From the NCBI GenBank assembly GCA_020619395.1, contig GCA_020619395.1_4860.1: a stretch of DNA of 64,000 nt, one strand, 5' to 3'. This DNA is from a phage. Numbering within the stretch: the first letter of the stretch is position 1; each line of letters starts with the position of its first letter. The translations under genes and the position numbers were made by a program. The notes below the pieces were generated by a model, which saw only the letters and a program-made list of their open reading frames with translations, ran no database searches and was not told where the DNA came from. Shown here piece by piece: positions 9,837 to 38,814 of this stretch.

Positions 9837-10229
9837 ATGGCGATATCTATTAAAGACGTCAGAAACCGCGTCCAGATAGTCGAAGCTAACATGGCGACAG
9901 GCCCCCGCATCGAGGCGCAAGTGGCCTCTAAAGCCCATAATGCAGCAGACCGATTTGGGGGTTGGACGAAAGCACAGCTAGATTGCGGCGGGACATGTTC
10001 TTGGACGTGCTCTAACGGTTGCTCGCATGGCTGTTCGAGCTGTTCAGGAAGCTGTTCTGCTTCTTGTATCGGTAGCTGTTCTTCGACGTGTGGCGGTAAC
10101 TGTTCTGGTTGCTCTGGTTGTTCTGGTGGTTGCAGTAGTAGCTGTACCGGTAACTGTTCAGGTGGTTGCGGCGGCTCTTGTTCCGCAAACTGCTCCGGGG
10201 CCTGCTCCGGCGGCTGTTCAGGTCGCTAA
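9837..10229 (+). CDS. Cys-repeat peptide 1 (130 aa): leader plus core with 21 Cys mostly at 4-residue spacing
   Basis: RBS AAGGAAG 5 nt before ATG. Leader MAISIKDVRNRVQIVEAN.., core CSWTCSNGCSHGCSSCSGSC... Candidate radical-SAM substrate. Confidence 0.6.
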   Translation: MAISIKDVRNRVQIVEANMATGPRIEAQVASKAHNAADRFGGWTKAQLDCGGTCSWTCSNGCSHGCSSCSGSCSASCIGSCSSTCGGNCSGCSGCSGGCSSSCTGNCSGGCGGSCSANCSGACSGGCSGR

Positions 10230-10625
10230 GGGGGATTAAATGGCAATTGGATTAAAAGAACTGAATAACCGATTAAACGCGATCGATGCAAACGCTTTAA
10301 AGAACACCACGAATGTGCAAAACTACATTCGCAATAAAGCTACGAATAACGCCGACTTGTTCGCAGGTCAAGGCCGTTCGCACTATGACTGTGGTGGCAC
10401 ATGCTCTTTTAGTTGCTCGAGTTGTTCTGGCGGGTGTACTGGGTCTGCTACGGGCGGTTGTGGGTCGACTTGTTCCGCAAACTGTGTATCGGGCTGTAGC
10501 AGTAGCTGTACGGGCTGTAGCTCTTCGTGCTCGGGTGGTTGTAGCGGAACGTGTACTGGTAACTGTTCTGGGGGTTGTGGTAAATCCTGCTCCGCAAACT
10601 GCTCCGGCGCGTGTTCTGGTGGTTG
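10000..10625 (+). repeat. Low-complexity codon repeats (TGC-TCN-GGN-GGN) within the Cys-repeat peptide genes
   Basis: Reiterated tgctctggttgctctggttgttctggtggttgc-type strings encoding C-S-G-G-C repeats; coding, not an array. Confidence 0.6.
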
Positions 10626-10641
10626 TTCAGGTCCTAACTGA
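10240..10641 (+). CDS. Cys-repeat peptide 2 (133 aa), paralog of peptide 1
   Basis: RBS GGGGGA before ATG. Leader MAIGLKELNNRLNAIDAN.., 20 Cys, CSANCSGACSGGCSG tail shared with peptide 1. Confidence 0.6.
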   Translation: MAIGLKELNNRLNAIDANALKNTTNVQNYIRNKATNNADLFAGQGRSHYDCGGTCSFSCSSCSGGCTGSATGGCGSTCSANCVSGCSSSCTGCSSSCSGGCSGTCTGNCSGGCGKSCSANCSGACSGGCSGPN

Positions 10642-10881: not shown

Positions 10882-11769
10882 ATGAAAAACGATTTGCATC
10901 TTGCGTATAAAACCACATTCAACCACCCGCTGCATCTATCTTCCCCAGATTCAGTGCGTGCGCACCTTGCTGACAAAGTCAGACTGATTGCACAGATTCC
11001 TGGTGAGTGGCCAAAGGTTCGTGGTCGCTTCTTGACCGACAAGAAGAACTACACCGTAGAAAATACGTTTAAGATCCGTGATATGGTTGCAGAGGCCATC
11101 GTTATCTTTAACGGCGATGGTAACTCTCGTGGCGTGTTAGTCGACGGTAAGTATTTCTTCAGTGAAGGGATTTTGAACAACAGCGTCGATTTAGAACTGA
11201 TGTTTACACCGTTTGACGAACTTGAAGCAAAACCGATGGCGCGCCGTTGGTGGAGTCCGGACTATCTGGGCTCGTTCCCTTACTACTTTGTACTGGTACC
11301 TGCCGATACGGAAACGTATTTCGACACCGAACCGTACATCGATATCGAGGGATATAAAGAACTCGGCATCACCCGTTTAGCGGACATGATGGCGTATAGC
11401 TATAAGTTCGTGTGGGATAAAAAGCGTTCTGTCTGGTATGCGTTGACTGACGATTTTGAAATCACCAAACGTATTCGTAAGCCGTGGATGCAACACCTGG
11501 TTCAAACCCGATATGGGGATTACCCGGCGACAGAAGCGGATTTGAGTAAGCTGGTAAGCTTCCTCTTAACGAAGGTGGATTTAACGAAAGAAGAAGCAGA
11601 AGCTGTTTCTGAGATTCGTAGTCGTTCGGTAACGTTGGCCGATTTGAAACGCTTGAACGAAAGACACGCCGACCTGAACAAAATTTTAGCTGCCTATCAC
11701 GACCCGATGTTACTGGTGCCTGGCGCTAATGTAGACGAAGATCCTTTATTCGCCATTGATTATATTTAA
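10882..11769 (+). CDS. Hypothetical protein in Cys-peptide/rSAM cluster (295 aa)
   Basis: ATG with GGAG upstream. No recognisable motif; co-oriented and tightly spaced with the rSAM genes. Confidence 0.6.
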   Translation: MKNDLHLAYKTTFNHPLHLSSPDSVRAHLADKVRLIAQIPGEWPKVRGRFLTDKKNYTVENTFKIRDMVAEAIVIFNGDGNSRGVLVDGKYFFSEGILNNSVDLELMFTPFDELEAKPMARRWWSPDYLGSFPYYFVLVPADTETYFDTEPYIDIEGYKELGITRLADMMAYSYKFVWDKKRSVWYALTDDFEITKRIRKPWMQHLVQTRYGDYPATEADLSKLVSFLLTKVDLTKEEAEAVSEIRSRSVTLADLKRLNERHADLNKILAAYHDPMLLVPGANVDEDPLFAIDYI

Positions 11770-11791
11770 AAATATACTGGAGCAACCTGCA

Positions 11792-12706
11792 ATGACAGAT
11801 CAAGTAGAATCCAGGATCTCGTCTGAACTGTACGACAAACCGTCAATTCTGTCGGTTGTCGCAACTTCTAAGTGTAACTTAGACTGTAGCTTCTGTGGAG
11901 GGGCTTATTACATGGATAGAGAAGATACTTCTCGTGAGTTTCAACGCGAAGAGATTCTCTCGATTTTAGAGAAGAATCCGGATATCGGTGAGATTCATTG
12001 GACGGGCGGTGAGCCGCTGTTAGCGCAGCGTAAGATTGAAGACTTCGTGAACGAGTTGAAGGAGTCTCATCCGAACCTCCGTCATCACATGTACACCAAC
12101 GGTTTAAAGATGCGTAAATCACATCTGCCGTTGCTGAAACAGTTCGACCTTATCTTTGTGTCCATTGACGGCTACAAGAAGTCGGAACGTCCGTTTATGA
12201 ACTTTGTAAACGGTGGTAATCACGAAGCGCTGGAAGTGCTGTACGAGCTGGACAACTATTACACCTGGGGTGTGATGACGCGTGACCAGTTAGGTGATAA
12301 ACGCTGGTACGAAGATTTCATCGAGCTGCACCGAGCAATCTATCATTACCGTCCAGGTGGTGTGTCGTTGTTGTTTGATGCGATGATGCCGAAACCGTTA
12401 TCGCCAGACCACGTCATGAACTTCATGTACGGGTATTGGAAAATACTCGACAATATCGAACGCCTTAACATGCAGAACGATTCTGAATGTGGGCTCGCGA
12501 TCAGTAAAATGTTCGATACCGAGTGCAACACGTGCAGTGAAGTGCTGTGGCTTAACGCCGACGGTACGCAGGAGCAAATTCAGAACGCCCCAGAGATATT
12601 GGAAGTCGGCTGTAATCGCCTGGCGCGTTCTATCGGCGTTGATGCGTATAACTACATCAACCGTGTAATTTCTGCTAAGCGTAAACGGGCGGCGAACAAT
12701 GAGTAA
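11792..12706 (+). CDS. Radical SAM enzyme (304 aa)
   Basis: CNLDCSFCGG CxxxCxxC motif near N-terminus; additional C-terminal Cys cluster (ECNTCSE..VGC). Start moved to ATG 11792 (tracked 11756). Confidence 0.75.
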   Translation: MTDQVESRISSELYDKPSILSVVATSKCNLDCSFCGGAYYMDREDTSREFQREEILSILEKNPDIGEIHWTGGEPLLAQRKIEDFVNELKESHPNLRHHMYTNGLKMRKSHLPLLKQFDLIFVSIDGYKKSERPFMNFVNGGNHEALEVLYELDNYYTWGVMTRDQLGDKRWYEDFIELHRAIYHYRPGGVSLLFDAMMPKPLSPDHVMNFMYGYWKILDNIERLNMQNDSECGLAISKMFDTECNTCSEVLWLNADGTQEQIQNAPEILEVGCNRLARSIGVDAYNYINRVISAKRKRAANNE

Positions 12707-14027
12707 TAGCGAACAGCAAATCCAGTACACACCACGCACGTATCAGGTTGTGACTAACCTGTCATGTAACCTGGACTGCGAATACTGCTACGAGCGTAAA
12801 TATCCGCGTAACAACAAAGTAGCAGACGTGATTGATTTTATCCACGCTTGTTTCGAGCGCGATAAAGATATCCCGAACGTTGAAGTCATCATCGATATCA
12901 TCGGTGGTGAGCCGTTCATGCAGCCTAAACTTCTTTTGGCGGCCTTTGAAACCGCAGAGAAGTTATGCGCAGAACACAATCGCCCGTATATGTTCAGTAT
13001 CTCCACGAACGGTACGCTTCTGGACCGTCCGCTGAACAAAGAAATTATCGAGCGCTGGAAAGACAAACTGTCTATTGGGGTCTCCATCGATGGTTTACCT
13101 GAAGTCCATGACAAATATCGTATCTTTACCACGACGCGTGAAGGGTCGTACGAAGCTGCGGTACGCGGTTACAATTATCTGAAGAGTGTTGGCATCGCTG
13201 AACTGGGCGTAAAAGCGACGTTTACGATCGATACATTGCCGCACTATGCCGCCAGCATGAAATCGTTAATTGACATGTCCGGCGGTGGTACCATTTCTGG
13301 TAATGTAACGTACGAAGATATCCTGCCGCGCCATATGGCGTTGGATATCGCGAACCAGATGATGGACGTGATGGACTACTGGATTGAGAAGGGTCTGCAC
13401 ACCAACCCGCGTAACACGATTACACACATCATCCCGGATGGCCTGAACTTTATGGCAACTTGGGACCCGGATTGGCGTGACAAACTCTTACACGACGACT
13501 CTGTTCGTCTCGACCCAGAACGCCTGAAACCGTACTGCGGTACGTTGACGCACATGACCTGTCTCGGCTTTGATCGCAAGATTTACGGTTGTAACCGTTT
13601 CATGTCCACGGTAACTTCCCGCTCTGCTGTAGCGGAACTGGTCGGTCGTGAGTTTGTGAGTCTGGACGGTGGTAAGCTGTTAGAAGAGATTCAAACGCAG
13701 TACACCAACTACCCAGAAACCTGTTTAGGGTGTCCGATGAAACACAGCTGCGGTAGCTGCGCAGCGGCATCGTACGAAAACGGTGAAGGTACACTGGAAG
13801 ACCGTAAAGCGTATCACGCCGAGCGTCGTCAGTGTGGTTGGACTACTGCGAAGCTGATGGCGGCGGAATATTGGTATCAGAAAACTGGTACGACTCGCGC
13901 ATCAGATTTGCACGATAAATCCATGTGCTATTGTTCACGTTGTGTACGCCAACGTGCCGAAGCAGAAAAATTACAAAACGGAGCCCAGAATGAAGTCAAT
14001 ACTGATTCACAATTTTACGAAGCGTAA
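12699..14027 (+). CDS. Radical SAM enzyme with SPASM/twitch-like C-terminal Cys-rich domain (442 aa)
   Basis: CNLDCEYCYERK CxxxCxxC motif; C-terminal CLGCPMKHSCGSCAAAS..CGW..CYCSRC cluster typical of auxiliary Fe-S domains. Confidence 0.75.
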   Translation: MSNSEQQIQYTPRTYQVVTNLSCNLDCEYCYERKYPRNNKVADVIDFIHACFERDKDIPNVEVIIDIIGGEPFMQPKLLLAAFETAEKLCAEHNRPYMFSISTNGTLLDRPLNKEIIERWKDKLSIGVSIDGLPEVHDKYRIFTTTREGSYEAAVRGYNYLKSVGIAELGVKATFTIDTLPHYAASMKSLIDMSGGGTISGNVTYEDILPRHMALDIANQMMDVMDYWIEKGLHTNPRNTITHIIPDGLNFMATWDPDWRDKLLHDDSVRLDPERLKPYCGTLTHMTCLGFDRKIYGCNRFMSTVTSRSAVAELVGREFVSLDGGKLLEEIQTQYTNYPETCLGCPMKHSCGSCAAASYENGEGTLEDRKAYHAERRQCGWTTAKLMAAEYWYQKTGTTRASDLHDKSMCYCSRCVRQRAEAEKLQNGAQNEVNTDSQFYEA

Positions 14028-15284: not shown

Positions 15285-15812
15285 TTAAACGAATCCGTCC
15301 AGTTCACCGTTGGTGGTGCTCAGGTCAGTTTTAACGATTGGCTGCGTTACAGTATAAACTGCAAGGCTGGCAGGCTGGTATTTAATGTGGCCTTCTTTCA
15401 CCATAACAGTGATGATTTTCTCACCACTGTCGCCGTCCTCGCGTGAAATGGTGAGTTCAGACAATGCAAACGCATCTTCCGTTTTACCGGCGGCAATTAG
15501 ATCTGCGTTGACAAAAGCAAGCACTTCTTCATCGGTATCCCATTCTGCCTGGTCAGCGGTAACTGCTTTCGCACCGATGATGTTCAATGAATCGAGGCGG
15601 GTATAATGCAGCTCTTTCTCGCCAGTAAAGTTAGCGGATTCCGCGGTGGCAGTGATGGTGAGTTTGGAGTTGCGAGTGTCTCCAGAATCTGCTGGTGAAT
15701 AGTCAGCAACAGCGCCGAATGTAACGTCAGCAGAAGTTAACGGACTAGACAGTCCGCTGTTTGCAGCATTAAACAGCGCAACGAGTTGGTCTTTTGCAGA
15801 GATGACTGCCAT
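15285..15812 (-). CDS. Short member of fibre-module family (175 aa)
   Basis: N-terminal module (LVALFNAAN..RNSKLTITA..ELHYTRLDSL) plus C-terminal TNGELDGFV shared with C-type paralogs. Confidence 0.65.
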   Translation of the reverse strand: MAVISAKDQLVALFNAANSGLSSPLTSADVTFGAVADYSPADSGDTRNSKLTITATAESANFTGEKELHYTRLDSLNIIGAKAVTADQAEWDTDEEVLAFVNADLIAAGKTEDAFALSELTISREDGDSGEKIITVMVKEGHIKYQPASLAVYTVTQPIVKTDLSTTNGELDGFV

Positions 15813-15892: not shown

Positions 15893-15920
15893 TTGGCTGT
15901 TAAACGAGAAATTTTATACC
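15893..15920 (+). promoter_or_regulatory. Possible sigma70-like promoter for lipoprotein gene
   Basis: TTGGCT, 16-nt spacer, TATACC about 15 nt upstream of the RBS. Weak match. Confidence 0.25.
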
Positions 15921-15935
15921 ACTGAAAGGTACTCT

Positions 15936-16427
15936 ATGAAACGTCTATTTATCGTATTCGCGATTATAAACCTGTTGGCCGGTTGTGTTCAGTCGCCAAG
16001 CAACATAGGACAATTTAGCGCCACACCAGTAAAGAATCACGACTTGGTGATTTATACATGCACAGGGACGCAGGAGAAGTTTATAGACTACCGTCCGGTT
16101 CTGGACAATCTACAGATGATGCCGCGGTCAGTAACAGTAATGGATGTGGGTGCAAACTGGGTAGCAACGTGGGACGGTGGCAAACTAGAGTCACCGATGA
16201 TGTTTAAAGATACAATTGGCAAAATCGACGGGAATGTTAACACCACCACAGGTGAGCGTTATTACCGTATTAATAAAACCGTAAACGATAGCCCCACTTA
16301 CTCTTTTTCGGATGTGAACCCGTATACCGGCGAAGGTAAAGGGATGACATTCTTTCGCTGCAGCAGCGGGTTTATCGGTGAAGTTCCTACTCCGATTACG
16401 ATTGTTCCGTTAGAAGAAAATAAATAA
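15936..16427 (+). CDS. Lipoprotein (163 aa)
   Basis: Signal peptide MKRLFIVFAIINLLAGC with lipobox LAGC. Lone plus-strand gene between minus-strand genes, with its own terminator. Confidence 0.7.
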   Translation: MKRLFIVFAIINLLAGCVQSPSNIGQFSATPVKNHDLVIYTCTGTQEKFIDYRPVLDNLQMMPRSVTVMDVGANWVATWDGGKLESPMMFKDTIGKIDGNVNTTTGERYYRINKTVNDSPTYSFSDVNPYTGEGKGMTFFRCSSGFIGEVPTPITIVPLEENK

Positions 16428-16429
16428 TG

Positions 16430-16470
16430 CTTACCCACTCCCGTAAGGGGAGTGGGTAAGGGCTTTATTT
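16430..16470. terminator. Bidirectional terminator
   Basis: 13-bp stem CTTACCCACTCCC/GGGAGTGGGTAAG, loop GTAA, then GGCTTTATTT; A-rich on the other side. Confidence 0.7.
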
Positions 16471-16552
16471 ACCCTCTAAAACGCTCTGTAACGCTCTCTA
16501 AGCGCATTAAACGTATCAAATGATAAATGATATTACTTTTGATTAAAGTGGC

Positions 16553-17068
16553 TTAGATTTTAACTAGCTTGCTCCAATCGATGGGTTGTTGCTTAACCAC
16601 TTTAACGGTACCACGTGTCGGTGACCAGAAGGTGATATCAGGCTGGTTGCGTACGTCAACATGCAACCAGGTAATATCGCACTCGATAAAGTGAATAAAC
16701 GGAAACTCGTTAGGGTTCGCGGCAATATAGTCGTGTACTTTCTGCAACGGAGTATCAAGCATTGTTGCATCAAACGCATTACCGAATTTATGCATACTGC
16801 CTGATTCGGCGTACAGTTTGTTTGCACGAGTTTGCCAATCTCCACCCTTTGGTTTCTCTTGATTAATAAAGAACTGCAGGGTACGCAGACTACGCTGTTG
16901 CTGGGAACTGGTTAAAATCACCATCCGCCCAAAACGATTACGAATCTGTTGGAGCGAGATTAGCAGTAACGGATTAAGGAAACGAATAGCACCTTCACCG
17001 TATTTCGCGATGTACTCCTGCGGCATCAACTCTTTTAACGCGAAGTTGGCAGGATTCGGATGAAACAT
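16553..17068 (-). CDS. Peptidase M15-like (candidate L-Ala-D-Glu / D-Ala-D-Ala peptidase, endolysin-type)
   Basis: SMHKFGNAFD (H-x6-D) and WLHVDV (second His) resemble zinc-ligand motifs of M15/VanY peptidases. AAGGAG RBS. Confidence 0.5.
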   Translation of the reverse strand: MFHPNPANFALKELMPQEYIAKYGEGAIRFLNPLLLISLQQIRNRFGRMVILTSSQQQRSLRTLQFFINQEKPKGGDWQTRANKLYAESGSMHKFGNAFDATMLDTPLQKVHDYIAANPNEFPFIHFIECDITWLHVDVRNQPDITFWSPTRGTVKVVKQQPIDWSKLVKI

Positions 17069-17077
17069 TTTTTCTCC

Positions 17078-17719
17078 TTAAGGGGCAGTCAGGAACGCAC
17101 GTTTGATATTCAAATACTGCACGTTTACCGGTTGCCCATTAGTAATGTCAACACGTTCGTGTTCAGGAATCGCTAACGTACGAGATGTTCTAAAGAACAG
17201 GTAGTTGCGATTATAGGACAACGTCTTTTCTACCGGCCGGCTATAAACCACCTTAGAGTTATCGTCTACATAGGACGGCCAACCAAACTCGTGAACGGCA
17301 TGGTAGAAGGACTTACGAATAAAGGTGTCAACGCCTAATGCCTCCATGATGCGTAAGAACATCAGGTCAGCGAATGTTTTGTCACATGCACGAGATAGAT
17401 TACCTTCGACAGTGTCAGGGTAAAAGCCTACCGATGAACGTTTCTGGTAAAACAAATCATGCACACAAGCGGCAGCGGCCCAAGGCCCATCCGGATGCAG
17501 GATAGGACGTAACGCTTCTGGAATGCTTGCCAGGTCCGTCACAAATCCTCTCGGTACCGTTACCCATAACGGGGTATCCGGATGCACACCTGCTAATGCT
17601 ACCATCGCATCCATTCCGGTCTGTTCACGATAGAGGCTGCGCAACGTAAACTCGAAATGGAAATCATCCGTGAGGATAAACCACGGCTTCTCTAACAACG
17701 TATACTTAAGTGCTTCCAT
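17078..17719 (-). CDS. DUF1353-like protein
   Basis: VPRGFVTDLASIP..AAACVHDLFY matches the DUF1353 signature as recalled. Confidence 0.5.
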   Translation of the reverse strand: MEALKYTLLEKPWFILTDDFHFEFTLRSLYREQTGMDAMVALAGVHPDTPLWVTVPRGFVTDLASIPEALRPILHPDGPWAAAACVHDLFYQKRSSVGFYPDTVEGNLSRACDKTFADLMFLRIMEALGVDTFIRKSFYHAVHEFGWPSYVDDNSKVVYSRPVEKTLSYNRNYLFFRTSRTLAIPEHERVDITNGQPVNVQYLNIKRAFLTAP

Positions 17720-17782
17720 ACTGACCTCACGTCATATAACGCACGAGCATCGTGAGGACCATTAATCCCAGTAAAATGGACA

Positions 17783-17935
17783 TTAAGCCTTTCGGCCAGT
17801 CGTCGTTGTCGTATTGCATGGCTTTACCCTCCGACAGAAGATCGCGCGTAATAGTTTGAAGAACCCAGAATCGTAATACGTTTCCGGAACGGTTTGTACT
17901 TCGGGGAACTTAGGCGGAGTTGGACGGTGGGTCAT
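17783..17935 (-). CDS. Small hypothetical protein (50 aa)
   Basis: ATG with AAGGAG 9 nt upstream; below ORF-track size cutoff. Followed by an 18-codon hydrophobic micro-ORF (17727-17783) overlapping via TAATG. Confidence 0.3.
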   Translation of the reverse strand: MTHRPTPPKFPEVQTVPETYYDSGFFKLLRAIFCRRVKPCNTTTTTGRKA

Positions 17936-18007
17936 TACGTTTTCTCCTTGCGGCAAAAACAAGGGCGCGCCAGATAGCTTTCATTAAGGCAGCAAACCAA
18001 TTCTGTT

Positions 18008-18625
18008 TCATTTGCACATCCCCAACTTAGCCACGTAGTCTGGCATTTCCTGATAGACGCGGCCATACCAGCCGTAAGTAAACTCTTCGTTATCCTCACG
18101 CCCTTCACTGATTTCCGTGTAGTACGCAACCTGATGACAGGTTAAAGCGAACATCAGTCGATTCAGGCCCTCTTCCCCACGGGCTTTGATGAAGCCTTCT
18201 AACGCTGTTAACGTACGTGGCCCGATACCACCATCGGCATCGATATCATCGTATAGTTTACCCTGACGGTTTAATACGTTCAGAATACGTTGCAGGGACT
18301 TGATACAGTTACCGCGTCCTGCGTTGATGCCGAAATCAAACATTCGGTCAGCTAGCAGGACATTCATTTTCATAATCTGGTCTAAACGCATCCGCTGCCA
18401 CCAGAGCTTGTTGTAAATGTCTAACGCGATTTCTAAGCTCAGGTCACGCATATCCCCTTTATAGCCATATTCGCGCGCAGTGAGTTCGGTGACACCACGG
18501 TTCGTTGCTTTGCCCAAATCTTTCGGGTTATTAACGTAACCGGCTTCGATGTTTACTTTGGCACGAATAATGCCCTCTTTACTCCAACGATCGACCACGA
18601 TAACCTCCTGAGTTGATAGGGTCAT
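18008..18625 (-). CDS. GH108-like muramidase with peptidoglycan-binding domain (endolysin or virion lysozyme)
   Basis: EAGYVNNPKDLGKATNRGVT matches the GH108 EGGYVNDPxDxGGxTxxGIT signature; C-terminal DGGIGPRTLTAL region PG-binding-like. Start uncertain: ATG 18625, or GTG 18598 with AGGAGG 5 nt upstream. Confidence 0.6.
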   Translation of the reverse strand: MTLSTQEVIVVDRWSKEGIIRAKVNIEAGYVNNPKDLGKATNRGVTELTAREYGYKGDMRDLSLEIALDIYNKLWWQRMRLDQIMKMNVLLADRMFDFGINAGRGNCIKSLQRILNVLNRQGKLYDDIDADGGIGPRTLTALEGFIKARGEEGLNRLMFALTCHQVAYYTEISEGREDNEEFTYGWYGRVYQEMPDYVAKLGMCK

Positions 18626-18657
18626 AAAAAGAAAGCCTCTTCCCCGTGGGGAAGAGG
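18623..18657 (-). terminator. Hairpin with U-tract after 725-aa gene (leaky terminator or attenuator)
   Basis: CCTCTTCC..GGAAGAGG stem then CTTTCTTTTTAT on minus strand; overlaps the possible lysozyme start. Confidence 0.4.
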
Positions 18658-18703
18658 GCATGGGTTATCTTCAGGCTTTAAACCCGTCAAGTTCCTCGTT
18701 AAA

Positions 18704-20881
18704 TTACGATAACGGTATCGTTGGCCGCACCCACGGTTTAGGGGCAGATTTGGTATACGGATTACATTCCATCATTTTACCGAGATACGCATCGTAATAC
18801 ACGAAGCGATCGACATAGAACCTCTCCACCGGTGTACTACTGGTAGCCGATTTCACCCGGTTGCGTTCCACAGCGAGGCCAATCACCCCGGTAGGCGCGG
18901 GTTTTAGGGTGAACATTACCGCACGGTTGTAACGCCAAGTGTCGTGCACAATATCAAACTCCGATACACTGTGTGCCATGATACCAAACAATGTGGTGGC
19001 TGGTAAGTTGGCTACAGCATCGCCGTATGGTGTTCCCACCAAACCGCCGGGTATGTTTTGCTTTTTGAACAGCGTACCTGAAATAATCGTACCTAAGAAC
19101 TCCACAACTACAGGTTTGGTTGGGTCGGTGACTTTATCTATCCCATCCGCACTGGCCAATCGGTTGGCATCTAAATCTGCGAGGTAGTCGAGGAACTCTT
19201 GGTACTCGTCGGTGACATTCGGTTTCACCGTTCCGACGGATACCCAGTTGACGATACTTTTATTCCCACCGACGGCTTCGCCTGCCATCCCAGGGCGAGT
19301 CCATGACATCCCGTCTTCACGACCGTAGACATAGACCGGCGAGCCGGTAGCCGGGGTGTTCCATTGCTCGAACGCTGTATATCGTCCCGGCTGGCCCCAA
19401 TCGCCACCAGGACCGCCATAGTAGCGACTCTGGTAGCCGGTAAATTGTGCGACGACTAACTGGGTAGCACCGCCTTTGTCACGGGACCCAGCTAAGCCGT
19501 TACGGTTATTGGTGCCGCTGGGTACCGCCGCGCCTGGCCCGAGAGGCGCACCACCAGCTCCACCGATCTTGGTGGTGCTAAACGCATAGTAGTCGCCCCC
19601 ACCCCCACCTCCGGCGATGGTGCCGTAGTTTTCGATGGTGACTTTGCCGCGGAAGGCATCGGTAATGTGGATTGCGTCAGCTCCGTCTGCTGATGTGTTC
19701 GCAGGCAGAGAATAGACCATACCCGAACCACCACGACCAAGAATGGTTCCCCGGTTAACGAAGTTCCAAACCACCTCGCCAATTTGCGGCAATTCGTCGA
19801 TAACGAACGTCGGTTTCAGGTTGCTGTCGCGATAAACGAAAGCCCCCGCATCTACGGTCACGTTAACAAACAAACGCCCGCACGCCGCATGGTTGGTCAA
19901 CGTCGTGGCCCAGTAGCTGTCCGAAACTTGCGACGTAGTTGTGTAGTTCAGGTTAAGGGTTTGCTCGTTATCTTGATAGCGTGCCACATTCAACGTGGCA
20001 CTGCCCATGACTTTGTACGAACCCTCCACAGGTGCCAATTGCACTTGTCTTGGCCACTCGCCTGCCAGGTCCTCTACGGGAGCAATTTCGTTTACATCAA
20101 AAACACTCCGAATGCCGAGTGTCTCGATGGCCAGAGCATCATGCAGGCTACCGGTGAAATCATCCGGGACGTATGTGGTTTTGCCTGCATATGTCTCGAG
20201 TTTGTTACGTGAAAAGAACACATACTTCGTTCCAAACATCCCGCTCCCCGGTCTAGCGGTCAAAGCCACGACGCTGTTATACGCAGAGGTTTGGCCTATA
20301 TCCTCCGGGGACATCGGGGCGCTGACATCGACTTTATCAAGATCCACGATCCGTTTGGTTGCATTAGAGTAGAAGTTAATCCACTGCTGTTTATTCGCAG
20401 CCTTTAGCGTGAGAATGATGTTGGTAACAGTGTAGACGGTGTTGATATCCACGTCACCGTTTATCACATCTAGCGTTTGGCTGCCGTACCAGACAAGACT
20501 TGTCTGTTTCGCCTGGAACGTGATGCGCGCAGCATTGTTTGTCCAAGTGATAGGCAGGTCTTCAAAGTCGTCGGTTAAAAAGGTAATCCCCAGTAAAGTG
20601 TCTAAATGCGGCAACAGTTCGTGAATGGATGCACAAGTGGGAATGGCATCCAACTTAACCTTAGCGAAATAATCAGCAATATTTTGCTTCGTGACTTGGG
20701 CCGTAATTTGACCGTAATTTGAATACCCCGGACCCCCTGTCAGTGTGACGTCTAGGGTTTTTTCGTCACGATGCGCCACGGACACCAGGCGTACGTTAGC
20801 GGGGTCTACTGCTTTGGCGACCGCGTTTTTACGGTTGAGCGACCGAATCACGGTCGCCACTAAATCGGGAGTGTAGGACAT
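18704..20881 (-). CDS. Fibre-module family protein with Gly-rich region (725 aa), candidate receptor-binding protein
   Basis: N-terminal family module (RKNAVAKAVDPANV..YGQITAQV); AGGGGGGDYY..GGAGGAPLGPG Gly-rich block; C-terminal NPYTKSAPKPWVRP shared with 20896-22215. Confidence 0.65.
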   Translation of the reverse strand: MSYTPDLVATVIRSLNRKNAVAKAVDPANVRLVSVAHRDEKTLDVTLTGGPGYSNYGQITAQVTKQNIADYFAKVKLDAIPTCASIHELLPHLDTLLGITFLTDDFEDLPITWTNNAARITFQAKQTSLVWYGSQTLDVINGDVDINTVYTVTNIILTLKAANKQQWINFYSNATKRIVDLDKVDVSAPMSPEDIGQTSAYNSVVALTARPGSGMFGTKYVFFSRNKLETYAGKTTYVPDDFTGSLHDALAIETLGIRSVFDVNEIAPVEDLAGEWPRQVQLAPVEGSYKVMGSATLNVARYQDNEQTLNLNYTTTSQVSDSYWATTLTNHAACGRLFVNVTVDAGAFVYRDSNLKPTFVIDELPQIGEVVWNFVNRGTILGRGGSGMVYSLPANTSADGADAIHITDAFRGKVTIENYGTIAGGGGGGDYYAFSTTKIGGAGGAPLGPGAAVPSGTNNRNGLAGSRDKGGATQLVVAQFTGYQSRYYGGPGGDWGQPGRYTAFEQWNTPATGSPVYVYGREDGMSWTRPGMAGEAVGGNKSIVNWVSVGTVKPNVTDEYQEFLDYLADLDANRLASADGIDKVTDPTKPVVVEFLGTIISGTLFKKQNIPGGLVGTPYGDAVANLPATTLFGIMAHSVSEFDIVHDTWRYNRAVMFTLKPAPTGVIGLAVERNRVKSATSSTPVERFYVDRFVYYDAYLGKMMECNPYTKSAPKPWVRPTIPLS

Positions 20882-20895
20882 GGTGACACCTTAGT

Positions 20896-22215
20896 CTATA
20901 GCGGTGGATACCAAGGGACCGGGGCGGTTTTGCTATATGGACTGTAGACCATATAGCCGCCTTTGCTTGGGTCGTAATAGATGAAATAGTTACAGTAATT
21001 CGAGTAAATGCTCGTCATTTGTTTGGATTGGTATCCGTTACGGTATAGTCCCTGGTAAGTAATAGCTGATGTCGTGGTGGTGTAAGCAGTGTGGTACAGT
21101 ACCCGACGCCGGTTAGCAATACTTTCTTGGAACATTTCTTCGGTCGGAAACGCGTGTTGCATCAGCCGTCGAATACTCCCGGTACAGTATCGAGTGCCAT
21201 ACGGGGAACCCGTTAAATCATCCGCAGTTTCAGGCGATTCTGCCCGAGTCAACACGTACTCGTTTTGATACAACGTGACGCTCATCGAATTTGGGCTGGT
21301 TTCCCGGAAACTCATGTAACGCGCATAACGTTCGACGTCCTCTTCCTGCGCCAAATAGGCCACGTTATTTTTCGGACCAAAGTGCAAGAAGAACGGACGG
21401 CGGAGATTACCCATATCCTCAGGTGGCGTCAACTTCACGCAGTAATTGTACTCCCCACGCATATCAGGGTCTAAGCCTGGGTTGTTATTGCGTGTAGCGA
21501 CATACCCATAGAGGTCATACGGGTTATCAGTAGCAGCATTACCGATAGTGAACGGGATGCCCGACCATGCCGACAGCGCCGCGATGAACTGGGTCATGTA
21601 CGAGTTACTGTTTAGTCGCAGCGGGGTACCCATCGGGATATTGATTATCTGTTGGGTGTACATGCTCCAGTCGAGTCGATAGACCGTGCTGTAAACATCC
21701 ATGGGTTCCCAAGCTCCGGTTTCGGTGGTGTGGTACAAGTCGGCAAAGCTGGGCTCTTCACGAATAAAGCTAATAGGAATGTGACCCGTGAATGCGGGGT
21801 TATCCGATTTAATCGCCACCGTCCGATCGCCCGTTGCCACAGTGATCATTGCAAACTGGCTGTCAGGATACGTTAAATCGTCAGCAGTAAGCACCAGCCC
21901 ACAAGCTGCGGAAATCCGGTCGATGATGTCGCGGTAGGACGTCGCCCGATAAGGTACTTTAACCGGTACGCTGACGCCTTTAAAATACTGCGAAAGGTTT
22001 AAGCGGTCGTAGTAGATGTCCATCTTACCGCTGTAACCGCCACCCTGTAATCCGTTTACCACTATACGGCTGTTGCGGCCATCGCGCAAGGCATTGGTTA
22101 AAGGACCTTGTAATAACGCCACGTTGGTTGCGTTGAGTGGTTTCTTGAGCTGCGGGTTATCACGATTAATCTGATCCCAAACCAGCTGCATGACAGGTTT
22201 GTTATAGTTGATCAT
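20896..22215 (-). CDS. Fibre-module family protein (439 aa)
   Basis: N-terminus MINYNKPVMQLVWDQINRDNPQL..RNSRIVVNG..IYYDRLNLSQYF; C-terminal SPYSKTAPVPWYPPL. Confidence 0.65.
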   Translation of the reverse strand: MINYNKPVMQLVWDQINRDNPQLKKPLNATNVALLQGPLTNALRDGRNSRIVVNGLQGGGYSGKMDIYYDRLNLSQYFKGVSVPVKVPYRATSYRDIIDRISAACGLVLTADDLTYPDSQFAMITVATGDRTVAIKSDNPAFTGHIPISFIREEPSFADLYHTTETGAWEPMDVYSTVYRLDWSMYTQQIINIPMGTPLRLNSNSYMTQFIAALSAWSGIPFTIGNAATDNPYDLYGYVATRNNNPGLDPDMRGEYNYCVKLTPPEDMGNLRRPFFLHFGPKNNVAYLAQEEDVERYARYMSFRETSPNSMSVTLYQNEYVLTRAESPETADDLTGSPYGTRYCTGSIRRLMQHAFPTEEMFQESIANRRRVLYHTAYTTTTSAITYQGLYRNGYQSKQMTSIYSNYCNYFIYYDPSKGGYMVYSPYSKTAPVPWYPPL

Positions 22216-22225
22216 TGCAACGTCC

Positions 22226-22262
22226 TAAAAAAAGAAAATAGGCCCTTCAGGGCCTATTTTTA
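22226..22262. terminator. Bidirectional terminator
   Basis: TAGGCCC-TTCA-GGGCCTA hairpin flanked by A-run and TTTTT. Confidence 0.6.
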
Positions 22263-22289
22263 GCTGTTATGGTGAAGTACGCTATCCCT

Positions 22290-22382
22290 TTAACTCCAGC
22301 TGATTCGACCTGCGTGTTGGGGATTATCCCGCTGAATGAGCCGACACAACAGCTCAAGTGCAGTGGATGAGTAAAACCCCAT
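22290..22382 (-). pseudogene. 30-codon remnant of a C-type fibre-module gene
   Basis: Translates to MGFYSSTALELLCRLIQRDNPQHAGRISWS*, matching the N-termini of the C genes (MGLYSAPELELLCQQVVRDNPELAGRIS..). AGGAG RBS retained; stop after codon 30. Confidence 0.6.
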
Positions 22383-22393
22383 ATTAGCTCCTG

Positions 22394-23296
22394 TTAGCTA
22401 AGAACCAGTTCGATAACGTGGACTACCGACGCGCTATTGGTCGAAGAGGTGTACGATGGTGTGTCTGGTGAGTTGCTGCGATAGTACCAGGGGGTGGCGT
22501 TGTCATAACCGTTGGCAAACAATGTTGCGCTTGAATCGGTTGGACTACCGCCGGAGCGCGCCGGTAAGTCGCCAAAACGTCTTACGACGCCCGCGTAGCG
22601 GAACAAGCTTGCGAACGTGTTGTGCCACTCGCCATCTTGAAAATAACCACCGCTGCTTAGGTAGGTGCTGTGCCCATAACTGTAGTCTCCGAGTCGAGGC
22701 AAACGTACCACATACTCGTAACCGTCTTTATTAAATGTCCGACGCTGGTTAGTGGTAGCGACGCCCCGTGGCGGGAAACCGTAGTCATCTGTTCCCCAGG
22801 CCAGACCTTGCTGGTATTGTTCGTTCCACGTCGTCCCTAAACGGGTCACCGTGTCAGGAATGAACAGAATGCGTCCTTTGAAAACGAATTTATGGAACAA
22901 TGTTGGAGCTTGGTTCCAGGCATTAAAGCCAATTAAACCATTCAGCTCGGCATGGTTAAGAATAAATTCTTCGTTTGTCAGTGTGCCAAAGTAGCCACGA
23001 TGCCAATCGCCACGAATAAGTTCCTGTGGGCCGGGCCCTGTCATTGGAAAGTCGCCCTGTACAATCGGCAGCCCCATAACCTTTTCAGTGCCCTTTACCG
23101 CCACGATGCGATATTGATACGTTTTATACGCCTCGGTGGTCGTGTCCTCGTACGTCGTTGTGTTACCTGGTAGTGTTACAATAGGTTCCCCCGGTGCTAC
23201 TGGGTTAACACTTTGTCTGGGGTTGTCGTAACGATAGATTTCAATGGAATCTAAAGTCTGACCTGGCTGTTGTTTCCAGTTTAAGATAATCGACAT
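22394..23296 (-). CDS. Fibre-module paralog type A, triad 3 (300 aa)
   Basis: FN3-like N-terminus (TTYEDTTTEAYKTYQYRIVAV) and central GPGPQELIRGDWHRGYFG..ELF..HKFVFKGRILF domain. Confidence 0.7.
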   Translation of the reverse strand: MSIILNWKQQPGQTLDSIEIYRYDNPRQSVNPVAPGEPIVTLPGNTTTYEDTTTEAYKTYQYRIVAVKGTEKVMGLPIVQGDFPMTGPGPQELIRGDWHRGYFGTLTNEEFILNHAELNGLIGFNAWNQAPTLFHKFVFKGRILFIPDTVTRLGTTWNEQYQQGLAWGTDDYGFPPRGVATTNQRRTFNKDGYEYVVRLPRLGDYSYGHSTYLSSGGYFQDGEWHNTFASLFRYAGVVRRFGDLPARSGGSPTDSSATLFANGYDNATPWYYRSNSPDTPSYTSSTNSASVVHVIELVLS

Positions 23297-23299
23297 GTT

Positions 23300-24298
23300 T
23301 TACTCCACTAACTCGATAACGAATGCGTACAAACCGACCTTCTCAGCACTGTCAATTAACGTAACTTGGGAGAGGTTACGTTTCGACGTATTGGTTATGC
23401 TTGAATCGATAGGCGCAGACCCGCGAACCAGAACTAATCCCGATTCAGGATCACGTTCTTGGCACAAGAAACCTTTGCCTTGGTAAGCGCTACCGCTCCC
23501 ATAAATGGACGCTGGACTAATATTAGTCCAGTTAGGGAGCATTTGTTTGTTAGGGATACAATCTCCGAACGGATAAACAAAATCGTTATATTCGCAGCGA
23601 CCATATTCCAAGTCATCATGGTCTGCGTTTCGCAACGATTCATCCAATGTCATTACTGTCGGTTCGTCCCCGTCGGTTAAACCGCGCAGCAATCGCATCC
23701 GATAGGTGTCGCCTTGCCATTCAAACAACCCACTCTGGTCAACACCTGCCAAATCCCCACGTCCGTTATCAGGACCAAATCCATCAACACCGTACACAAG
23801 CCCCGCGTTATAAATGTCATTCCACGAGTAAAGTGTAGAGTTAAATCGTCCGCCGCTGTTCATCATGTAGTAAACTTTACCATGTCGATAAAACTTGTTC
23901 ATGATTAGCGTGCCCGTGCCCGATATCCCTGTTAATGCACGAAAGCCTGCAGGCAACGCGTCATAGGTCATCTGTTCTTCGAACGGCAACTGCCCCAGAA
24001 ACGCCAAGTCGTCAGTATCGGAATAGTTAATCTGGTCGACGCCACCCACACCACGACGGTTTTTAATGACAATGGATTTTTGTGGACTACCTACGGTACG
24101 GCCGTTAACAGTTACTGTTAAAAGATACCAGTAACGGGTGTTAAGAATAACGGTTTCGTCCGTCCATTCCGTTTCGCCATTACTTAAAGTTGCAATAGGG
24201 GCTGGTAATGCGGCTGTATTTATTTTAGCCGTGCCCCGATAAATGTTAACAATTGAACCTGCCGGATTTTCATTTTTCCAGCGTAGTGTGAATGCCAT
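23300..24298 (-). CDS. Fibre-module paralog type B, triad 3 (332 aa)
   Basis: MAFTLRWKNENPAGSIVNIYRG.. N-terminus; AAGGAG RBS; 3-nt gap to A gene. Confidence 0.7.
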   Translation of the reverse strand: MAFTLRWKNENPAGSIVNIYRGTAKINTAALPAPIATLSNGETEWTDETVILNTRYWYLLTVTVNGRTVGSPQKSIVIKNRRGVGGVDQINYSDTDDLAFLGQLPFEEQMTYDALPAGFRALTGISGTGTLIMNKFYRHGKVYYMMNSGGRFNSTLYSWNDIYNAGLVYGVDGFGPDNGRGDLAGVDQSGLFEWQGDTYRMRLLRGLTDGDEPTVMTLDESLRNADHDDLEYGRCEYNDFVYPFGDCIPNKQMLPNWTNISPASIYGSGSAYQGKGFLCQERDPESGLVLVRGSAPIDSSITNTSKRNLSQVTLIDSAEKVGLYAFVIELVE

Positions 24299-24308
24299 CT
24301 GTTACTCC

Positions 24309-25751
24309 TTAGAAGCCGTTCAACTCACCGTTCGCGGTTGCTAAATCTGTTTTAAGTGGAGGTTCTGCCTGAGTAGGCGGTAGTGGACGCGGTGCGTCGA
24401 CGTGTGGTTCAAGTACAACCATCGGCCTAACTGTACCTACGCTGTTCGACACTGTCGATAACGGCAGCGCAGTATCGACGTTTGGTTCACCCACCACAAT
24501 CGGGCTGATAGGTTCTTCCACCTGTTCCGCAGTTGTTGCTAGAGGTCTCGGCGCATCTGTTGTCGCAACCTCGACTGCAAGAGGGCGAATGCTATCAGGT
24601 TGTGGTGATGGTACATTAGGAATAACCCTAACGCGCCACACAACATCCCCTTCCACATCAGCTAAAGATAAGACGATGTCGTCCTTATTGATTTCCTCTA
24701 AAACAGGCCACCAGTAAGTGGTATCTGTAAGGGTTACCCATTCAACTGAGCCACCGCGCATATTGCAACGTTGTACTTTAACAGGGTTACCCCCGGTTAA
24801 CAGTTGTTGCGTGAAGAAGACGGTGGTTCTGGTTAACGTGGTGTCATTTGCCCAGTCGCCGCCCGTAGAACCGTCACCGAGTTGTGAAATAAGCCACAAC
24901 GGTGTGGCCTTTGATAAATCAGGGCTAACCGGAACGGAGACGCGGTAATAATGCGTCTTGTTATTCTCAGTTTTCGTGACAATCAAAGCCTGGTCAACAG
25001 GTTCGATACCGTCTGGATACGGACCAGTGTCACCTGTACCGAAAATGGCACCCGCTTGATAAAGGGCCGTCCAGGTTGCTGTTAACGTTCCGGTAGTCGG
25101 TAGATAAACAATCTTACCATCCTTGAAAAATTTCAACCATTCGAAAGTCATTTTCGTTGGGGCAACATCAGGACGAATTAGGTTGTTTAGTTCAGCAAAG
25201 GTAAATAACTCTTGCTGAGAAACGTGGCCGAAGTATCCGTTTGTGCTGTCCCCTGCCAACAAATATTTATTGCCTGGCCCAGAATCTGGATAGTAGCCCA
25301 CGGCTTCATTCAAATAATCGACCGGGATATAGCCGCGATAGCATACGCTATTATACGCGGTTAAATTAATACGTGTTGGCGTTGCCAGCGATTTGATAGG
25401 CGCGTCTACCGACTGTACACTGCTATCAGATAACCAAACACCGTATAAATCGCGTAGAGCTGGGAGAAGATCCCGCACGGTCTTGGCCGTTTGTGGTACG
25501 TAGACGCGCGGAGCTATTTTAAATAGATCTGATAATGTTAAACGGTCGTAATAAACCGTGCACTCCCCAGAGAAACCTTTACCGGGTTTACCTACCAACG
25601 TAATTACCGTGTTACGACCATTCTTAGTGGTCTCGGCAGGAATACCCCTCACCCCAATCGAATCAGCGCTGATTCTTCCTGCGAGTTCAGGGTTATCCCT
25701 TACGACTTGTTGGCAGAGCAATTCCAGTTCGGGTGCGCTATACAATCCCAT
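24309..25751 (-). CDS. Fibre-module paralog type C, triad 3 (480 aa)
   Basis: N-terminal family module (VRDNPELAG..GRNTVITLVGKPGKGF..VYYDRLTLSDLF), central GPG..GYFG..ELF domain, DAPRPL repeats, C-terminal TANGELNGF. Confidence 0.7.
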   Translation of the reverse strand: MGLYSAPELELLCQQVVRDNPELAGRISADSIGVRGIPAETTKNGRNTVITLVGKPGKGFSGECTVYYDRLTLSDLFKIAPRVYVPQTAKTVRDLLPALRDLYGVWLSDSSVQSVDAPIKSLATPTRINLTAYNSVCYRGYIPVDYLNEAVGYYPDSGPGNKYLLAGDSTNGYFGHVSQQELFTFAELNNLIRPDVAPTKMTFEWLKFFKDGKIVYLPTTGTLTATWTALYQAGAIFGTGDTGPYPDGIEPVDQALIVTKTENNKTHYYRVSVPVSPDLSKATPLWLISQLGDGSTGGDWANDTTLTRTTVFFTQQLLTGGNPVKVQRCNMRGGSVEWVTLTDTTYWWPVLEEINKDDIVLSLADVEGDVVWRVRVIPNVPSPQPDSIRPLAVEVATTDAPRPLATTAEQVEEPISPIVVGEPNVDTALPLSTVSNSVGTVRPMVVLEPHVDAPRPLPPTQAEPPLKTDLATANGELNGF

Positions 25752-25762
25752 GAAGTCTCCTG

Positions 25763-26662
25763 TTAAGGCAGAACGAGTTCAAGTACCGCAATGGAGCGTA
25801 TTGTAGTGGTACCGTAGTTACTCCATGCCGGCGACTCAGGGTAAGGTGGACGGTTGTACCACTGACTGGACGTGTTATTCATAGCCGCAAAGAATGCAGA
25901 TTGTTGGGCAGTAACCGAATCGATTGAACCGACCGGAAGGTCGTCAAAGCGCGGAAACTGCCCACTGTAGTTGTACAGGCGCGCGAAGGTGTTAAACCAC
26001 TCACCGTCGAGATACAACTCAGTGTTACCGCTTCCAACGTAAGACGTCCAGTATTTGTAGTCGAACAAATACGGCAAGCGCACCACGTATTCGTAACCGT
26101 TCTTCGCCACCGTGCGGCGTTGGTTACGTGCAGTAGCCCAGCCCGGTACATATCCATTGCCATCCTGGCCGTACATCATCCCCTGGTTATAAATGAACTG
26201 CGGGCTAGCGTTTATTATCGAGTTATCGGACATAAACAGAATACGGTTTTTGTAAATGAATTTATGCCAGGCACCAACGGCGGAACTGAACATATTCACC
26301 ACGAGGCCGTTCAGTTCCGTGTTAGTGAATAACTCTGCTGGCGTTACTGTTCCAAAGTATCCAGCGTGCCAGTCGCCGTATAACAGTTTCTGGGGGCCAG
26401 GCCCGGTGTCTAAAAAGAACCCTTGGGCGGTAGGGGTGTTGAAGACACGCTCACCGTCTTTAACCGCAGCTATCCAATAACGGTAAGTGGTGTTGTTTTC
26501 CACAGCGTTGTCTTCGTACGATGTAGCGTCACCCGGAAGGGTTGCCAGAGGCGTTCCCGGTGCATTAACATCAATTGTGGCGTTGCCCGGCGTCTTGCGA
26601 TAGATTTCGATGTTATCGAGCGCCTGTGGCTTCCGTTGTGCAAAGTGTAATGTAATAGGCAT
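25763..26662 (-). CDS. Fibre-module paralog type A, triad 2 (299 aa)
   Basis: Start set to ATG 26662 (MPITLHF..), 2 nt after upstream stop; tracked 26698 start overlaps. About 60% identity to the other A copies in the central domain. Confidence 0.7.
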   Translation of the reverse strand: MPITLHFAQRKPQALDNIEIYRKTPGNATIDVNAPGTPLATLPGDATSYEDNAVENNTTYRYWIAAVKDGERVFNTPTAQGFFLDTGPGPQKLLYGDWHAGYFGTVTPAELFTNTELNGLVVNMFSSAVGAWHKFIYKNRILFMSDNSIINASPQFIYNQGMMYGQDGNGYVPGWATARNQRRTVAKNGYEYVVRLPYLFDYKYWTSYVGSGNTELYLDGEWFNTFARLYNYSGQFPRFDDLPVGSIDSVTAQQSAFFAAMNNTSSQWYNRPPYPESPAWSNYGTTTIRSIAVLELVLP

Positions 26663-26664
26663 GA

Positions 26665-27654: not shown

Positions 27655-27666
27655 TGTCGTTACCTC

Positions 27667-29163: not shown

Positions 29164-29176
29164 GGTATTTACTCCA

Positions 29177-30100: not shown

Positions 30101-30109
30101 GACTGCCCC

Positions 30110-31108: not shown

Positions 31109-31119
31109 AGATGATACCT

Positions 31120-32532: not shown

Positions 32533-32545
32533 AGGGACTCCGCAT

Positions 32546-32576
32546 CGCCAAAAGAGGGGGGCTCCGAAGAGCCCCT
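32546..32576 (-). terminator. Hairpin terminator between short-paralog genes and triad 1
   Basis: Minus-strand GGGGCTC-TTCG-GAGCCCC followed by CCTCTTTTGG. Confidence 0.45.
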
Positions 32577-32580
32577 ACAC

Positions 32581-33408: not shown

Positions 33409-33411
33409 CAA

Positions 33412-34299: not shown

Positions 34300-34309
34300 T
34301 CGCTAATTC

Positions 34310-35149: not shown

Positions 35150-35167
35150 AATAGCCTCCTCGGCCAA

Positions 35168-35206
35168 AAAAGAAAGGAGTAGCCAGGAGGAGGATTTCCT
35201 CCTCCC
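35168..35206 (-). terminator. Hairpin terminator-like element
   Basis: GGAGGAGG-ATTT-CCTCCTCC stem-loop; U-run begins 9 nt downstream on minus strand. Confidence 0.35.
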
Positions 35207-35218
35207 AGCGAGGCCTAA

Positions 35219-36130: not shown

Positions 36131-36151
36131 TCTTACTTCCTTTACTCAGGA

Positions 36152-36997: not shown

Positions 36998-37007
36998 GTC
37001 AAAATCC

Positions 37008-37850: not shown

Positions 37851-37860
37851 CTATACCCTC

Positions 37861-38810: not shown

Positions 38811-38814
38811 TTCT

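Follow-up and report, generated by a model that had tools for sequence, protein, structure and literature searches.

A candidate envelope-degradation operon without a standard holin in a giant Salmonella phage

How does a giant phage open its host when its cell-wall hydrolases lie together with no recognisable holin beside them? This question is raised by a group of genes at 16,553–18,625 in a 64,000-nt stretch of phage DNA (contig GCA_020619395.1_4860.1 of assembly GCA_020619395.1), the whole of which is called the window here. Lysis in giant phages is poorly defined; a review of jumbo phages mentions neither holins nor spanins, and no annotated holin was found in the giant Salmonella phage SPN3US. 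A preliminary description of the locus, made from the letters alone, had proposed that either micro-open reading frames (micro-ORFs) act in lysis timing or the hydrolases are virion-associated enzymes for entry. Comparisons of sequence and gene order lead us to the reading that 16430–18657 is a single late transcription unit acting as an envelope-degradation (host-lysis) module without a standard holin, and we put the probability of this reading at about 0.5.

Layout of the unit and its three enzymes

The window derives from a Seoulvirus, the genus of SPN3US-like giant Salmonella phages. A search with 15900–18700 matched 36 records, almost exclusively from Seoulvirus jumbo phages, with identities of 99.5% to Salmonella phage 1252 and 95.9% to SPN3US. 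The genes under study correspond to SPN3US_0156 to SPN3US_0158, which we call gp156–gp158 following the numbering of the proteomics papers, and RefSeq labels them 'endolysin', 'tail assembly chaperone' and 'hypothetical protein', respectively. Together with three micro-ORFs, they form an operon of six co-directional minus-strand genes in the order gp156, mu1, mu2, mu3, gp157 and gp158 (Table 1). Two terminator-like hairpins enclose exactly these six genes directly downstream of the tail-fibre operon, and within the unit gene spacing is tight, with one ATGA overlap and strong Shine–Dalgarno (SD) sequences. The downstream hairpin is common to the operon and a convergent lipoprotein gene. Between the upstream hairpin and the endolysin gene there is no space for a promoter, and we infer that the operon is expressed by read-through of this leaky hairpin from the late tail-fibre operon.

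According to our model, the late-transcribed unit would supply micro-proteins that permeabilise the inner membrane, or time its opening, in place of a canonical holin with two or three transmembrane (TM) helices. The lesion would give the cytoplasmic gp156 and gp158 access to murein, in which glycan and peptide bonds would then be cut, and the phospholipase A2 (PLA2)-like gp157 may subsequently convert membrane phospholipids to lysolipids and aid membrane destruction. A spanin pair encoded elsewhere in the genome, gp204/gp205, would complete or parallel disruption of the outer membrane.

All three protein families named in the preliminary description were confirmed. gp156 carries Glyco_hydro_108 (PF05838, E 9e-18, 65 bits against a cutoff of 21.2) and a C-terminal PG_binding_3 domain (PF09374, E 6e-19, 68.4 bits against a cutoff of 24.6). 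Among solved structures, gp156 is closest to Sen1395 (6v3z, 2e-41) and to 6v40 (5e-39). Its 'IEAGYV' aligns with 'KEGGYV' and 'REGGYV' of these structures, so that the Glu is retained and Ala replaces the first Gly. This Glu of the N-terminal E-G-G-Y-type motif we take to be the catalytic residue. A signal peptide, a signal-arrest-release (SAR) sequence and a TM segment were looked for in gp156 and none was found. gp156 is thus a predicted GH108 N-acetylmuramidase of the N4 gp61 / TtsA type. Its true start is probably GTG 18598, which has AGGAGG upstream and agrees with the N-termini of the Asesino and Caitlin orthologues, rather than the RefSeq start ATG 18625, which directly follows the T-run and has no SD sequence. 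A further ATG at 18661 is not the endolysin start, because it overlies the terminator-like hairpin.

The Pfam score of gp158 is below threshold (Peptidase_M15_3, 16.8 bits against a cutoff of 23.2). However, gp158 matches the 'endolysin' family phrog_894 at 3e-26, and its zinc motif H93-x6-D100 ... H136-x-D138 is invariant in 15 homologues, so we consider the M15 assignment right. The acidic residues E129, D131 and D138 near the zinc ligands are likewise invariant in these homologues, the fold is that of LAS enzymes, and an export signal was looked for in gp158 and not found. Hence, gp158 is a predicted LAS/M15 zinc metallopeptidase. In several SPFM records (LR535903–LR535917), the region was matched only as 40 fragments with gp157 and gp158 frameshifted, which suggests sequencing or assembly indel errors in these deposits.

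Membership of gp157 in DUF1353 (PF07087) is well above the Pfam cutoff (E 2e-17, 63 bits against 22.5). The family includes TtaP, a protein of 125 aa that is encoded by gene five of the typhoid-toxin islet, where the muramidase TtsA is encoded as well; the PLA2 activity of TtaP has been demonstrated and is lost in D85A, with H70, D71 and D85 as catalytic residues (PMC11525133). The authors of that study propose perturbation of the outer membrane alongside TtsA as a possible role and acknowledge the biological role of TtaP as an open question (PMC11525133). An orthologue of TtaP was found in the islet of S. diarizonae, where the order is pltB-pltA-ttsA facing ttaP-cdtB. gp157 is 37% identical to this orthologue (E 2e-17), and its H87, D88 and D118, which align to H70, D71 and D85, are invariant in 26 diverse homologues. 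In addition, gp157 has extra N- and C-terminal beta elements, and no export signal was found in it when looked for. As for a likeness of the core to group XIV secreted PLA2 (1LWB, 4AUP), alignment by hhalign with an approximate sequence of SvPLA2 placed the motifs in register only weakly. PLA2 chemistry is therefore deduced from family membership and residues, not from the fold, and gp157 is best described as a putative TtaP-type PLA2.

Enzymes of this kind could also serve at the start of infection, if the hydrolases, and possibly the lipase, were tail-borne and breached the envelope from outside. The unit directly follows the tail-fibre genes, and 2–3 spectra of gp158 were reported from some virion preparations and none from tailless particles, as such a role would suggest. 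However, in the table of spectral counts for SPN3US virions, gp155 is followed directly by gp160, so that gp156 and gp157 are missing from it. In a later study, gp158 was absent from the wild-type virion and was judged to be non-specific. Moreover, the enzymes are small and free-standing without tail-attachment domains, and GH108 plus PG_binding_3 is a widespread endolysin architecture (tblastn with gp156 matched 509 phage records). The entry role suggested in the preliminary description is accordingly not supported for gp156 and gp157 and weak for gp158, and as an explanation of the unit we regard it as very improbable. A related idea, that gp157 opens the lipid vesicle of early chimallivirus infection, was rejected, as gp157 is absent from virions, its unit looks late and it was not found in phiKZ.

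Table 1. Features of the unit, with numbers of variable sites at codon positions 1/2/3 across seven Seoulvirus genomes
Feature	Coordinates	Strand	Variable sites (1/2/3)	Remarks
Upstream terminator-like hairpin	18636..18657	-		CCTCTTCCCCACGGGGAAGAGG then T-run; between gp155 stop (18704) and endolysin; upstream operon edge
gp156, predicted GH108 muramidase + PG_binding_3	18008..18625	-	4/6/54	Pfam and PDB matches; TtsA/Sen1395-like
mu1, 33 aa	17910..18011	-	1/0/5	MKQNWFAALMKAIWRALVFAARRKRNDPPSNSA; ATGA overlap with endolysin stop; phrog_25143
mu2, 50 aa	17783..17935	-	0/1/5	SD AAGGAG; Pro-rich N-terminus + cationic amphipathic helix
mu3, 30 aa	17727..17819	-	2/1/3	SD GGAGGG; acidic N-terminus + one C-terminal TM helix
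gp157, DUF1353, 213 aa	17078..17719	-	6/4/26	TtaP family; putative, phospholipase-A2-like
gp158, predicted LAS/M15 zinc peptidase, 171 aa	16553..17068	-	2/1/16	SD AAGGAG; zinc motif, fold
Bidirectional terminator-like hairpin	16430..16460	.		13-bp stem, 8 GC pairs; downstream operon edge

Micro-ORFs between the endolysin and DUF1353 genes

The 288-nt 'gap' between gp156 and gp157 contains three small genes. Two micro-ORFs had been noted before: the 50-aa ORF is present as mu2, and the 18-aa hydrophobic peptide is the C-terminal part of the 30-aa mu3, read from an internal Met. The third, mu1, had been overlooked, and it is also unannotated in all seven Seoulvirus records whose annotation we inspected; mu2 carries an annotation in EC001, and mu3 in phages 1252 and SaP7.

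All three micro-ORFs are intact in 7/7 Seoulvirus genomes. Third-position bias of the substitutions in mu1 and mu2 (Table 1) is a coding signature, and the variation in mu3, whose SD sequence lies 8 nt upstream, consists of conservative hydrophobic substitutions. mu1 has a net charge of +6 and an amphipathic helix with a hydrophobic moment (muH) of 0.53, and it is assigned to phrog_25143 (3e-12) together with its homologue, gp172 of Erwinia phage Asesino. The cationic amphipathic helix of mu2, GFFKLLRAIFCRRV, is nearly identical in a 27–28-aa ORF of Erskinevirus. Machinaviruses have a single ORF of 38–52 aa (gp167) at the site of mu2 and mu3. The Pro-rich N-terminus of mu2 is homologous to the N-terminus of this gp167 (E 1e-6), and mu3 corresponds to its TM half by position and weakly by sequence (E 0.018). 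Because the matches fall to the two halves of gp167, Seoulvirus mu2 and mu3 look like a mosaic or split of the Machinavirus gene.

Gene order adds to this conservation. The triplet of endolysin, micro-ORF(s) and DUF1353 is kept in Erskinevirus (Asesino, phiEaH2), Machinavirus (Caitlin, Huxley, ChrisDB), Wellington-like phages and an uncultured clade, so that it persists in at least four lineages, also where the block has moved relative to tail-fibre and radical-SAM genes. In every related lineage with the endolysin and DUF1353 genes adjacent, Seoulvirus included, micro-ORFs lie between them. In CR5/Derbicus and the metagenomic L006, the endolysin gene is not adjacent, micro-ORFs are absent and the DUF1353–M15 pair is retained. 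Lysis-type neighbours of DUF1353 were also found in three unrelated phages outside the jumbo clade, namely an M15 gene and a holin-like gene followed by DUF1353 in Fusobacterium JD-Fnp3, a lysozyme gene followed by DUF1353 in Pseudomonas Bjorn, and DUF1353 followed by an endolysin gene in Cygsa01.

Both murein hydrolases lack export signals, and an inner-membrane lesion would therefore be needed for lysis. The chemistry of the micro-proteins, two with cationic amphipathic helices and one with a tail-anchored TM helix, fits membrane-active peptides. Being conserved and translationally coupled, they would be the most economical candidates to supply or time the lesion. The suggestion that micro-ORFs take part in lysis thus gains support from synteny, from coding bias in two of them and from membrane-active chemistry, and is plausible as a predicted function.

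Membrane proteins elsewhere and other readings of the unit

None of the micro-proteins is a holin by family: neither mu2 nor mu3 matched a holin family of Pfam or PHROG, nor did mu1 match one of PHROG. mu3 does not qualify as a canonical holin, having one TM helix but just 30 aa and no family match. In a Kyte–Doolittle hydropathy scan of all ORFs of the window, no credible protein with two or three TM helices was found, and the multi-TM ORFs, each overlapping a longer ORF of another frame or strand, were judged spurious. Among them, a 122-aa ORF with two TM helices (38721–39089) was rejected as a holin, as it overlaps an annotated 143-aa gene in another frame and has junk-like composition; it contains too few substitutions for a coding test. 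The same scan found no two-component spanin pair in the window.

Several other membrane or secreted proteins of the window were noted in passing. The convergent gene gp159 (15936–16427, +) encodes a 163-aa lipoprotein with the lipobox LLAGC and Val at +2, for which no i-spanin partner was found in the window. Asesino and Caitlin have homologues of gp159 (gp174 and gp163, respectively) next to the module, and given its place beside an adhesin gene the lipoprotein could serve superinfection exclusion or be an outer-membrane lipoprotein. Further away, a small secreted protein with the signal peptide MKKVLVLLGALVAPMVAHA (47135–47542, −) and a protein of 69 aa anchored by an N-terminal TM segment (49318–49527, −), both without family match, are encoded on the two sides of a gene that RefSeq calls 'head maturation protease'.

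For the rest of the genome, we relied on SPN3US. No gene in its whole RefSeq record is named holin or spanin, and Pfam, PHROG and NCBIfam gave neither name to any of its proteins. A scan outside the window found gp198, an SLT transglycosylase of 240 aa whose signal peptide looks cleavable; gp200, an 86-aa protein with two TM helices; a cluster of small TM proteins at 171.4–172.1 kb; a TM protein of 80 aa encoded behind the terminase gene; and gp204/gp205, an adjacent type-II membrane protein and lipoprotein that fit a two-component spanin. gp198, gp200 and gp204/gp205 are encoded in NC_027402 175058–176688 and 180017–180976 (19058–20688 and 24017–24976 in our locus L095). gp204 is 38% identical to CR5_183 (E 2e-20), which with its neighbour is listed as a separated two-component spanin in the census of Kongari et al. 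(PMC6139136 supplement). Because of this homology to curated CR5 spanins, the phage most likely has spanins. gp198, gp200 and gp204/gp205 may together form a second, more canonical set of lysis genes. The earlier statement that holin and spanin are missing consequently holds at the locus and in the window but not, for the spanin, in the genome; no canonical holin–endolysin–spanin cassette was found.

These genes bring in the strongest alternative, in which lysis genes are dispersed: gp156 would be an ordinary endolysin placed after tail fibres, holin and spanins would lie elsewhere in the 240-kb genome, and the remaining genes of the unit would be accessory or have nothing to do with lysis; DUF1353 might, for instance, have a task linked to tail fibres or a 'moron' function, and M15 might remodel murein. 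Besides the spanin homologues, the small proteins with one or two TM helices and the secreted SLT protein, all located elsewhere, this explanation is consistent with phage Goslar, in which a tail fibre gene, a GH108 endolysin gene and a terminator follow each other without DUF1353, M15 or micro-ORFs. In two P2-like prophage contigs of IMG/VR (L166 and L167), TtaP relatives follow tail-fibre/Tfa genes and precede the sheath gene, the 'moron' slot, and PHROG and RefSeq label DUF1353 proteins 'tail assembly chaperone'. However, this label appears positional rather than evidence-based, probably explained by the tail-fibre/sheath position in P2-like prophages, and no experimental basis for it was found. 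The 'structural protein' label of the Arash DUF1353 protein was likewise discounted, since the Arash proteome lists 116 proteins, ligases and a primase among them. Moreover, dispersal does not account well for six genes forming one hairpin-bracketed unit, for micro-ORFs that co-vary with presence of the endolysin gene, or for the pairing of DUF1353 with a murein peptidase in two unrelated lineages, and its alternative holin candidates are unrecognised by Pfam, PHROG and NCBIfam. We regard this alternative as possible but doubtful.

Several observations nevertheless weigh against a lysis module centred on this unit. In large phages, lysis genes are often dispersed and the lack of an adjacent holin is not unusual, and gp198, gp200, the small TM clusters and the spanin pair could be the genes that truly provide the membrane component of lysis. 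Across 24 non-jumbo viral clusters of IMG/VR, only about 10 of 81 genes flanking DUF1353 are recognisable lysis genes, and none was seen beside DUF1353 in CP81 and Arash. The closest phage relatives of TtaP (71–81% identity) lie outside lysis cassettes, in P2-like prophages. Among 80 bacterial or prophage GH108 loci, DUF1353 occurred within 6 kb in the typhoid-toxin islet only. Finally, TtaP showed no envelope phenotype in S. Typhi (PMC11525133).

Two generalisations were rejected on these grounds. GH108–DUF1353 pairing is not a general module, and DUF1353 is not a general lysis-cassette gene, its enrichment being modest and its closest TtaP relatives standing at the moron site. We therefore argue the lysis role from this operon and not from the DUF1353 family as a whole.

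The behaviour of TtaP, cell-associated with no overt lysis phenotype, would also agree with a task after lysis or against competitors. The peptidase and the PLA2-like enzyme might degrade receptor-bearing debris or vesicles, so that progeny are not trapped, or modify the envelope of the infected cell, so that superinfection is blocked. The unit adjoins the adhesin gene gp155 and the conserved outer-membrane-type lipoprotein gene gp159, and DUF1353 occupies a 'moron' position in prophages, as expected for such tasks. However, enzymes without export signals would gain access to the envelope only after a breach of the inner membrane, i.e. at lysis, and we consider clean-up or exclusion improbable as the function of the unit.

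Other neighbours of the unit deserve mention in their own right. Paralogous tail-fibre-like genes form a long array (18704–20881 and 20896–38658, both −), and an N-terminal DUF7941 domain is common to 15285–15812, 18704–20881 and 20896–22215. The last member of the array, gp155, also carries a Gly-rich domain like that of the T4 Gp38 adhesin (PF05268, 6e-18). On the other side, two paralogues of about 130 aa (9837–10229 and 10240–10641, both +), whose C-terminal halves consist of Cys/Gly/Ser repeats (CSGGCSG...), closely precede an ORF of 295 aa and a pair of radical-SAM genes (Radical_SAM plus Fer4_12) at 10882–14027 (+). These look like precursor(s) and radical-SAM maturases, possibly of a system akin to ribosomally synthesised and post-translationally modified peptides or of thioether cross-linking.

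Records of the genes discussed here already exist, in part with annotation, and endolysins of the GH108 type are common. In the literature searched, we did not find a description of the link between phage DUF1353 and the TtaP phospholipase, of a phage operon in which the TtsA and TtaP families recur as a pair, or of the three conserved micro-genes. If the PLA2-like gp157 and the micro-peptides act in lysis, an enzymatic lipid-hydrolysing step and tiny membrane-active peptides would join holin, endolysin, spanin and disruptin among the lysis proteins of phages of Gram-negative hosts. The operon also gives a concrete hypothesis for the role of TtaP, and this hypothesis is genetically tractable because SPN3US has an amber-mutant system. 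In addition, two annotations can be corrected, the 'tail assembly chaperone' label of DUF1353 and the missing 33-aa gene mu1 in the seven inspected Seoulvirus records.

Comparison with known lysis and release systems

The typhoid-toxin islet is the nearest relative by content. As in the phage operon, GH108 and DUF1353 proteins are encoded side by side and neither enzyme has an export signal; moreover, the muramidase alone is insufficient there and outer-membrane perturbation is needed. The arrangement and the purpose differ, however. Islet genes are convergent, with ttaP co-transcribed with cdtB, whereas the phage genes all point the same way in one unit, in which micro-ORFs separate the two genes and an M15 peptidase gene comes after them, and the islet serves toxin release, not phage lysis. 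gp157 has 213 aa against 125 aa in TtaP, the difference including extra domains and 16 inserted residues that part the HD motif from the catalytic Asp, and TtsA is nearer to prophage endolysins (up to 84% identity) than to gp156. A bolder extension of our model, in which coupled micro-peptides effect holin-independent lysis, TtaP-type PLA2 forms a new enzymatic class of phage lysis effectors on Gram-negative membranes and the TtsA/TtaP islet is a domesticated 'partial lysis' module, which would account for the joint occurrence of the two proteins there, is speculative and in our view rather unlikely.

Compared with the S-R-Rz/Rz1 genes of lambda, the unit likewise has a soluble cytoplasmic endolysin that would need an inner-membrane lesion, an inferred late expression beside structural genes, and small putative membrane-active genes adjoining the endolysin gene. 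In contrast to lambda, it has no holin with two or three TM helices or match to such a family, its spanin pair lies about 44 kb away (SPN3US coordinates), and a second hydrolase and a lipase-like enzyme are added.

Lipolytic enzymes in lysis have a counterpart in LysB of mycobacteriophages, a cutinase-like serine esterase that acts on mycolyl-arabinogalactan as a third lysis step. The analogy is one of mechanism, as in both cases a lipid-ester hydrolase encoded next to an endolysin would act on an outer lipid layer once murein has been degraded. The two enzymes are unrelated in fold and chemistry, since gp157 is a putative His-Asp PLA2-like enzyme for glycerophospholipids, and the host is Gram-negative.

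For the micro-proteins, two precedents are available. The disruptin gp28 of phage phiKT, a cationic amphipathic lysis peptide of 56 aa, is a precedent for small lysis peptides that are not holins. mu1 and the helix of mu2 are similarly small, cationic and amphipathic and lie in a putative lysis cluster; the likeness is physicochemical, mu1 is shorter than gp28, and spanin homologues are present in this phage but spanins are lacking in phiKT. Lcc6 of Shewanella LambdaSo is a 65-aa TM protein that is required at the holin step for endolysin release. Although Lcc6 operates alongside a pinholin and an SAR endolysin, it is a very small TM protein outside known holin families, and in size and topology it offers a precedent for peptides of the mu3 type.

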